This document shows positions 22,606 through 22,690 of a stretch of 64,000 nt of DNA, piece after piece. This DNA is from Escherichia coli (lineage in GTDB: Bacteria; Pseudomonadota; Gammaproteobacteria; Enterobacterales; Enterobacteriaceae). Numbering within the stretch: position 1 is the first letter of the stretch; the number at the start of each line of letters is the position of its first letter. A model generated the notes under the pieces. The model saw nothing but the letters and a program-made list of their open reading frames with translations. It made no database searches and had not been told where the DNA came from. Where the stretch lies: NCBI RefSeq assembly GCF_001677475.2, contig NZ_CP015229.1, one strand, 5' to 3'. A program made the translations under genes and the position numbers.

Positions 22606-22690
22606 GTTTGTATATTAGAATTCCGGCATCACTAATACGTGCAGATATCCGTGTATACTAGACGTATAAATTGTACAGGAGCACGATATC

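Follow-up and report, generated by a model that had tools for sequence, protein, structure and literature searches.

The window analysed here, a 64,000-nucleotide stretch of Escherichia coli DNA, carries the open reading frames kefC, folA, a 77-aa frame and a 104-aa frame, followed by the convergent apaH, apaG and rsmA. The two small frames lie on the same strand, 2 nt apart, and the 3′ end of the second overlaps convergent apaH by 4 nt. An 85-bp spacer (22606–22690), measured as the first-pass annotation had it, separates the folA stop codon from the ATG of the first small frame at 22691.

folA: stop codon ending at 22605 (open reading frame map).
ccdA: 22691–22924, plus strand, 77 aa, ribbon-helix-helix antitoxin with β-strand QSVTVTVD (Pfam CcdA, alignment to F CcdA).
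ccdB: 22927–23241, plus strand, 104 aa, gyrase-poison toxin and presumed co-repressor (Pfam CcdB, open reading frame coordinates).

Both products are readily assigned. The first matches Pfam CcdA (PF07362; E = 3.6e-26, 91.8 bits, cut-off 22.4) and the second Pfam CcdB (PF01845; E = 1.4e-31, 109.2 bits, cut-off 28.6). A CcdA-domain antitoxin is thus followed closely by a CcdB-domain toxin, the arrangement of a CcdA/CcdB type II toxin–antitoxin operon, and RefSeq genomes annotate the pair as a CcdA-family antitoxin and a CcdB-family protein. Residues 8–75 of the window CcdA align to F-plasmid CcdA (PDB 2ADL/2H3A; E = 9e-6) through the β-strand, pairing QSVTVTVD with QRITVTVD of F. From this alignment, the window protein is predicted to carry an N-terminal ribbon-helix-helix DNA-binding domain. 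Overall, CcdA_O157 and F CcdA are only about 31% identical.

The arrangement folA–[ccdA–ccdB]–apaH in the E. coli chromosome is the known ccdO157 islet. By megablast, the whole folA–ccdA–ccdB–apaH segment is found in 2,021 of 5,426 complete E. coli genomes, with the best match in strain FDAARGOS_497 (99.6%); O157:H7 strain SS52 is 97.9% identical over 901 bp. The match ends at window position 22614 in the remaining, ccd-less genomes, and K-12-type strains have a 77-bp folA–apaH spacer with a REP-like palindrome instead of ccd. Placement of the islet between folA and apaH, replacing the K-12-type spacer, is supported by PMC3184786, and the islet is reviewed in PMC2654758. Its genes in O157:H7 show no difference from those of the window. 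Wilbaux in 2007 and Mine in 2009 reportedly described the ccdO157 islet of E. coli O157:H7 between folA and apaH. Because the flanking genes are the same and the segment matches O157:H7, the locus is this published islet. In the accessible literature, including reviews and citing papers, we found no description of a ccdO157 operator (an earlier mapping is possible) and no binding or expression experiment on the folA–ccdA spacer. Both the system and the kind of element are already known; the spacer very probably holds the expected autoregulatory site of a known toxin–antitoxin system.

The first-pass annotation proposed that four GTATAC-type hexamers in the spacer make up an operator equivalent to that of F-plasmid ccd. 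All four are present where it placed them.

GTATAT: 22610–22615, within the folA 3′ flank.
GTATAC: 22653–22658, a perfect palindrome.
GTATAA: 22664–22669.
GTACAG: 22673–22678.

Its statement that F ccd is autoregulated by CcdA–CcdB on short palindromes is essentially right (PMC5389731). Counting hexamers with at most one mismatch to GTATAC, the spacer has three. In mononucleotide shuffles the mean count is 0.53, with P(≥3) = 0.013; under a first-order Markov model of the spacer it is 1.58, with P = 0.20. Across the 64 kb, 0.08% of all 85-bp segments, and 1.2% of AT-matched ones, reach three. The cluster is unusual for the genome, with an excess that is modest and not robustly beyond the dinucleotide composition of the spacer itself. 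GTACAG can be disregarded, being two mismatches off and one of 10 such hexamers in the spacer. In the whole 64-kb window there are 4 exact copies of GTATAC against 6.0 expected.

A GTATAC is also found within ccdB, at codons Val5–Tyr6 (22939–22944), inside a 10-bp palindrome, and is present in 23 of 38 relatives. This copy was considered as part of the operator and rejected, as it follows codon choice and phylogeny.

Relatives of the operon were gathered by plasmid tblastn and by a CcdA-alignment scan of one genome per species; the scan, with a CcdA alignment built without F and Vibrio sequences, yielded 78 loci. After start-codon location, 44 loci from about 16 genera share the window β-strand, TQSVT[MV]TV. 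Pectobacterium, Dickeya, Brenneria, Lonsdalea, Erwinia, Pantoea, Serratia, Yersinia, Photorhabdus, Xenorhabdus, Klebsiella, Tatumella and Izhakiella are among these genera, and IncFII-type plasmids of Salmonella and Yersinia also contribute loci. Column conservation was computed on 39 unique non-Escherichia upstream regions, anchored on an inverted repeat without gaps. Because many of the 39 are close relatives, shared ancestry inflates the information content.

What the clade conserves is CGTG(T/C)A followed, 12 bp start to start, by CGTGT-N5-(A/G)CACG. In the window this pattern occupies 22638–22643, 22650–22654 and 22660–22664, just upstream of the ribosome-binding site.

folA 3′ flank: 22606–22629, plus strand, common to ccd-less K-12-type strains and not part of the ccd cassette; holds GTATAT.
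Site 1, ATACGTGC: 22635–22642, plus strand, core CGTGCA at 22638–22643, a direct repeat 12 bp upstream of the left arm.
Site 2, ATCCGTGT: 22647–22654, plus strand, containing the left arm of the inverted repeat, CGTGT, at 22650–22654.
Variable spacer ATAC: 22655–22658, plus strand, between the arms; with the GT of the left arm it forms GTATAC (22653–22658).
Site 3, AGACGTAT: 22660–22667, plus strand, containing the right arm AGACG at 22660–22664 (family (A/G)CACG).
Shine–Dalgarno AGGAG of ccdA: 22677–22681, plus strand, 9 nt before the ATG; GG in 30–33 of 39 relatives.

Core columns reach 1.5–2.0 bits, and the 5-nt spacer and flanks stay near 0–0.7, the flanks mostly below 0.4. At site 1, columns 22639–22643 read G in 39/39, T in 38/39, G in 29/39, T in 35/39 and A in 37/39; the site is invariant in 8 Escherichia sequences and Xenorhabdus ehlersii. 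The left arm (22650–22654) is C in 35/39, G, T and G in 39/39 each, and T in 38/39. The right arm (22661–22664) is C in 38/39, A and C in 39/39 each, and G in 38/39. Here the window departs from its family: G at 22661 replaces the C of 38 of the 39 relatives, and AGACG is found in all 8 Escherichia sequences. Upstream, the K-12 alignment of the folA flank runs TAA(T/G)TTTGTATA and then GAATT..CGGC, its extension to about 22629 having been made by eye. Only about 60 bp upstream of ccdA is cassette-specific DNA.

Scored against CGTGT-N5-ACACG, the inverted repeat reaches 9/10 or better at 42 of the 44 loci, with 5 nt between the arms in every case. It lies 35–54 nt before the ATG across the clade, and the spacing among the three cores never varies. 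Fixed core spacing despite a variable distance to the ATG is the signature of a composite protein-binding site. Over shuffles, CGTGT is enriched with z = 22 and ACACG with z = 16. Written as 8-mers with a CG step in the middle, the three sites follow one another at centre-to-centre distances of 12 and 13 bp, and each agrees with ACACGTGT in 6 of 8 positions. With up to one mismatch allowed, the inverted repeat has no second match in the 64 kb. About two are expected by chance, so this uniqueness is uninformative either way about a host regulon.

The same expectation of about two inverted-repeat patterns per 64 kb, with the Markov P of 0.20 for the hexamers, is what could be said for an AT-rich spacer that holds similar hexamers by accident and has no function. 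Core conservation across genera, at fixed spacing and at a fixed place relative to ccdA, cannot be chance. We regard functionless coincidence as highly improbable for the spacer as a whole. For the CGTG cores it is largely refuted by this conservation; it remains the best description of GTATAT and GTACAG.

The hexamers themselves fare differently from the cores. Over the 39 relatives, the conserved columns are the CGTG/CACG cores and not the GTATAC-type hexamers, which speaks against the latter as the proposed operator sites. Of GTATAC, the GT alone belongs to the conserved left arm; the remaining ATAC occupies the variable spacer, whose columns 22655–22658 hold 0.75, 0.30, 0.28 and 0.03 bits. 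GTATAA overlaps the right arm in its G alone. Columns under GTACAG carry 0.08–0.51 bits, apart from one G of the ribosome-binding site, and those under GTATAT 0.09–0.44 bits; GTATAT is also DNA common to ccd-less K-12 and reads GTCTAT in E. albertii. A sample of 8 Escherichia sequences, E. albertii included, has variants in GTATAT, in GTATAC and at 22659 and none in the three cores. One of these variants is GTTTAC in place of GTATAC, in E. coli strain RIVM_C039227. With so little variation the sample is anecdotal and too small for a real test.

Could CcdA_O157 nevertheless read GTATAC-type hexamers as F CcdA does, at GTATAC, GTATAA and GTACAG, with centres 11 and 9 bp apart? The central F sites are GTATAC palindromes (PMC5389731) and are conserved in the F clade. 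GTATAC-like hexamers are enriched in the window clade overall (z = 6.6), and of 41 relatives, 6 have one at offset +3 from the left arm and 9 at offset +14, for the most part in Photorhabdus, Xenorhabdus and Yersinia. Of the three β-strand positions of CcdA that we take to be DNA-facing, two are Thr in both proteins. Against this register, 20 of 41 relatives with the same β-strand have no such hexamer, and CGTG and CACG are each present in 37 of 41. GTGTAC and GTACAC, which belong to the conserved CGTGTA/TACACG cores, account for much of the enrichment; the other matches, at the window offsets, are confined to the Photorhabdus/Xenorhabdus/Yersinia subclade. The hexamer-specific columns carry only 0.03–0.75 bits, the 11- and 9-bp spacings are off the family period of 12–13 bp, and the GTTTAC strain lacks the palindrome. 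We consider recognition of these hexamers improbable. GTATAC, GTATAA and GTACAG are probably by-products of the sequence adjoining the conserved cores, and GTATAT an unrelated flank.

The F-plasmid ccd promoter and operator are said to have been characterised by Tam & Kline (1989), Dao-Thi (2002) and Madl (2006). As a control for the footprinting, we took the upstream regions of six F-clade plasmid ccdA genes, whose proteins are 86–100% identical to F CcdA. Their invariant blocks are the three central sites, ATATAC/GTATAC, G(T/C)ATA(C/T) and GTATGT, spaced 12 and 11 bp. Since these blocks match the known central sites, phylogenetic footprinting recovers a known operator. That operator spans 113 bp and holds at least eight CcdA sites (Vandervelde 2017, PMC5389731).

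Other CcdA clades show their own palindromes. A sister clade with β-strand KKTVSVTLEP has two ACACGTGT palindromes in all 15 loci, 13 bp apart in 14 and 12 bp in one. In a third clade (KKATNLSLN, KRATNVSV and relatives), 2–4 ATGCGCAT palindromes occur, adjacent ones mostly 12–13 bp apart with occasional larger gaps. A small subclade of two loci with β-strand QTVTMTV has CTGTT..AACAG arms instead. The 12- and 13-bp period of the three window sites fits the family period; the 11- and 9-bp register of the first-pass annotation does not. Clades A and B differ in β-strand residues and have similar cores, so protein–DNA covariation is not clean.

The arms might instead serve something other than CcdA, either by forming a hairpin in the leader RNA of ccdA or by binding a host regulator, for instance the ribbon-helix-helix protein MetJ. 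The arms can pair. The metbox consensus is AGACGTCT, and site 3, AGACGTAT (22660–22667), matches it at 7 of 8 positions. Folding of the region, however, is no better than that of shuffles (z = −0.75), and Rfam gave nothing at E ≤ 1. It is the sequence of the arms that is conserved, with no compensatory changes, and site 1, being a direct repeat, is no pairing partner. MetJ requires metboxes in tandem; the 8-mer next to site 3, TGTATACT, agrees with the consensus at only 3 of 8. Against both, the element accompanies the cassette in many genera, on plasmids and chromosomes alike. A structured RNA leader or intrinsic terminator was rejected on the folding and Rfam results and for want of a terminator-like site, and a MetJ operator because there is a single box with no contiguous 8-bp repeats. 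Either would be most unexpected here. Arc, Mnt, MetJ and CopG-type operators do resemble the window element in having short repeats about one helical turn apart, read in the major groove by a β-ribbon, and in the likeness of site 3 to a metbox. They differ in protein family and in the tandem metboxes that this element lacks, and its co-repressor would be the toxin.

The promoter is the weak point of the Escherichia copy. In the relatives, an extended −10, TGnTAT(G/A)(A/C)T, is conserved and ends 2 nt before site 1. At relative positions −19, −18 and −14 the family has T in 37/39, A in 34/39 and T in 34/39, with TG at −22/−21 in 28/39. Transcription in the relatives would then start at about site 1, and sites 2 and 3 would lie in the first part of the transcript. 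In the window, positions −19, −18 and −14 are A, C and T, and −22/−21 are AT; the sequence at the family −10 is ATCACTAAT, so that the TG and the first TA are gone. The lost −10 coincides with the start of the cassette-specific DNA.

ACTAAT: 22631–22636, plus strand, position of the family extended −10, degenerate in Escherichia.
TATACT: 22654–22659, plus strand, speculative −10 inside the inverted repeat, with −35 CTAATA at 22632–22637 and a 16-nt spacer (8/12).
TATAAA: 22665–22670, plus strand, speculative −10 abutting the right arm and overlapping GTATAA (5+3 of 12, 17-nt spacer).

A strict promoter scan of 22300–23400 returned no promoter, and a loose hexamer scan gave no candidate above 8/12. 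For these reasons we name no promoter. With the family −10 degenerate here, the sites are overlapped only by the weak, speculative candidates TATACT and TATAAA. The position of TATAAA is TATAAT in two relatives (L027 and L029), and its family columns are weak (0.28–0.72 bits). No terminator-like site was found between folA and ccdA, which makes read-through from folA plausible.

These observations invite the reading that the sites are vestigial, inherited with the cassette and of no useful regulation in E. coli, with expression coming from folA read-through or a weak promoter. The −10 lost at the cassette boundary, the C-to-G change at a base conserved in 38 of 39 relatives, and the lack of both a promoter above 8/12 and a terminator after folA are all in its favour. 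So is a frameshifted ccdB in 2 of 5 sampled strains (N44 and RIVM_C039227). PMC2654758 and PMC3879964 cite Mine et al. 2009 for decay of ccdO157. The three cores are nonetheless unchanged in 8 of 8 Escherichia sequences while neighbouring bases vary, and 1,877 genomes carry the folA–ccdA spacer at 95% identity or more. The operon also responds to growth phase: the main text of a study of O157 Sakai gives ccdAB as up 5.3-fold on entry to stationary phase, and folA is absent from that main text (PMC2241611). This rise hints at control of ccdAB separate from folA. We think a purely vestigial element unlikely.

An autoregulatory operator is very probably present in the folA–ccdA spacer, judged from sequence conservation, with the CGTG motif and register and not GTATAC. 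The first-pass annotation was therefore right about the place and the kind of element, one of protein-binding type, and wrong about its motif and register. Likewise, its comparison with the F ccd operator stands for several short, regularly spaced sites and falls for the core, which is CGTG/CACG. We favour, with some confidence, the reading that the sites at 22635–22667 are those of the CcdA_O157 antitoxin and still act as the operator of the ccdO157 operon. In its support, the three-site element travels with the cassette across plasmids and chromosomes. Counting against it are the family −10 that is lost, with no convincing σ70 promoter in either scan, and the substituted right arm. F CcdA alone binds weakly and with very low sequence specificity (PMC5389731), so conservation may overstate what the protein reads.

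By analogy with F, the operator would be a rigid set of three CG-centred sites, ATACGTGC, ATCCGTGT and AGACGTAT, or, described differently, the direct repeat CGTG(T/C)A with the inverted repeat CGTGT-N5-(A/G)CACG downstream of it. One ribbon-helix-helix CcdA dimer would bind weakly at each site through its β-ribbon (step 1). CcdB dimers would then bridge neighbouring CcdA dimers, and the resulting avidity would give tight binding (step 2). The bound complex would block initiation at an overlapping promoter and possibly read-through from folA (step 3). Excess CcdB would break the chain and lift repression, making it dependent on the toxin:antitoxin ratio (step 4). In F, repression comes from the avidity of a chain in which CcdB dimers link CcdA dimers, and too much CcdB disrupts the chain (PMC5389731). 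The Escherichia copy would be a weakened version, its family extended −10 gone and a nearly invariant arm position changed from C to G.

F ccd and ccdO157 both have homologous ribbon-helix-helix CcdA and CcdB genes in the same order, and several short imperfect palindromic sites about 12 bp apart directly upstream of ccdA. The ccdO157 spacer even carries one perfect GTATAC, and ratio-dependent repression through CcdB-bridged CcdA chains is the expected mechanism. The core differs, CGTG/CACG (family palindrome about ACACGTGT) in the window clade and GTATAC in F, as does the extent, three conserved sites in about 33 bp against at least eight in 113 bp. The position aligned to Arg4 of F is Ser in CcdA_O157. 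The ccdO157 copy also lacks a recognisable strong promoter and is chromosomal, 85 bp downstream of folA with no terminator between. Closer at hand are the cassettes of Pectobacterium, Dickeya, Photorhabdus, Xenorhabdus, Yersinia, Erwinia, Pantoea and IncFII-type plasmids, with CcdA 59–69% identical, the β-strand TQSVT[MV]TV, and three CGTG-core sites at identical spacing. Their (A/G)CACG arm is perfect, and 2 nt upstream of site 1 they retain an extended −10 (TGnTATGAT or TATACT/TACAAT); both are missing from the Escherichia copy.

For binding or reporter work on ccdO157, the bases to mutate are the CGT cores at 22638–22640, 22650–22652 and 22663–22665, not the GTATAC-type hexamers. A spacer fragment used in this way may come without a self-sufficient promoter.

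More broadly, and tentatively, CcdA antitoxins might share one operator architecture with clade-specific palindromes, the E. coli copy having lost its own −10 and possibly being expressed from folA. In such an architecture, a fixed site period of 12–13 bp may be set by the geometry of the CcdA2–CcdB2 chain. The palindrome may vary by clade, F having GTATAC, the O157 and sister clades CGTG/ACACGTGT, a Vibrio/marine clade ATGCGCAT, and the small subclade CTGTT..AACAG. The E. coli copy may have lost its −10 at the insertion junction and had one arm weakened. It may be expressed largely by read-through from folA, leaving the operator as a roadblock or a remnant. Compared across clades, the loci form a small natural set in which the sequence of the ribbon-helix-helix β-strand can be related to the operator palindrome while site spacing stays constant. 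It bears on how general the F-type chain-avidity model is, and on cross-regulation between plasmid and chromosomal ccd systems. If the shared architecture is true, F and ccdO157 residing in one E. coli cell would be transcriptionally insulated from each other even though their antitoxins cross-neutralise.

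Several repeats and palindromes and one gene overlap in the window lie in or beside the putative operator, the two toxin–antitoxin genes and the right edge of the ccd islet:

22609-22619 and 22652-22662, folA–ccdA spacer: direct repeat TGTATATTAGA / TGTATACTAGA, 10 of 11 positions identical, 43 bp apart
22644-22649 and 22685-22690, same spacer: two copies of GATATC (an EcoRV site), 41 bp apart
22720-22740, inside ccdA: a direct repeat (two copies of GACCGT) and an 11-nt palindrome, TCACCGTCGAC / GTCGACCGTGA
22937-22946, ccdB codons 4-7: perfect 10-bp palindrome CGGTATACCG
23238-23241: 4 nt shared by the 3' ends of ccdB (plus strand) and apaH (minus strand)

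The right-hand copy of the 11-nt repeat comprises the left arm and spacer of the proposed operator, while the left-hand copy straddles the junction between the folA flank and the cassette. At this junction K-12, which lacks ccd, reads TGTATA-GAATT, without TTA. The repeat could have arisen by chance (at a rough estimate, a few percent), or it could be a microhomology that was exploited when the cassette inserted. At the other end, ccdB overlaps apaH, so that the islet's right-hand boundary coincides exactly with the stop codon of apaH. K-12 has a REP-like palindrome in its folA–apaH gap; this palindrome is absent here.

The first GATATC sits between operator sites 1 and 2 and the second directly adjoins the ccdA ATG; neither is conserved among relatives. 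The ccdB palindrome contains a second exact GTATAC (22939-44), which encodes CcdB Val5-Tyr6. These codons are GTATAC in 23 of 38 relatives and GTTTAC or GTTTAT in the remainder, and the motif here probably reflects codon choice and ancestry, not a site. The repeat and palindrome within ccdA fall in the codons of the VTVTVDRE beta-strand and are most likely a by-product of its repetitive amino-acid sequence.

Upstream of ccdA in Pectobacterium carotovorum (locus L016), a tandem duplication of the right arm and downstream leader, GCACGTATTTCATGCAG GCACGTATTTCATACAGGAG, creates an extra CACG site and shifts the inverted repeat to -54. In Photorhabdus cinerea (L037) and Morganella morganii (L048), the upstream inverted repeat is CTGTT-N7-AACAG rather than CGTGT-N5-ACACG, and the CcdA beta-strand reads QTVTMTV, with threonine replacing serine. 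This position, which aligns with Arg4 of the F-plasmid protein, may be a specificity-determining residue.

Within Escherichia, two of five sampled E. coli strains (L090, N44; L091, RIVM_C039227) have a ccdB whose annotation records a frameshift, and the ccdA reading frame of E. albertii (L012) extends to 105 codons. Both features fit the published decay of ccdO157. Position 22661 in the right arm is G in every Escherichia copy (the window, L011, L012 and L089-L093), E. albertii included, and C in 38 of 39 relatives, giving AGACG in place of ACACG. The family's extended -10, TGnTATGAT, is likewise missing from all Escherichia copies, that of E. albertii among them. These two changes suggest that the Escherichia regulatory region has been weakened or re-wired, a state that would either have become fixed by the time E. 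coli and E. albertii split or have spread between the two.
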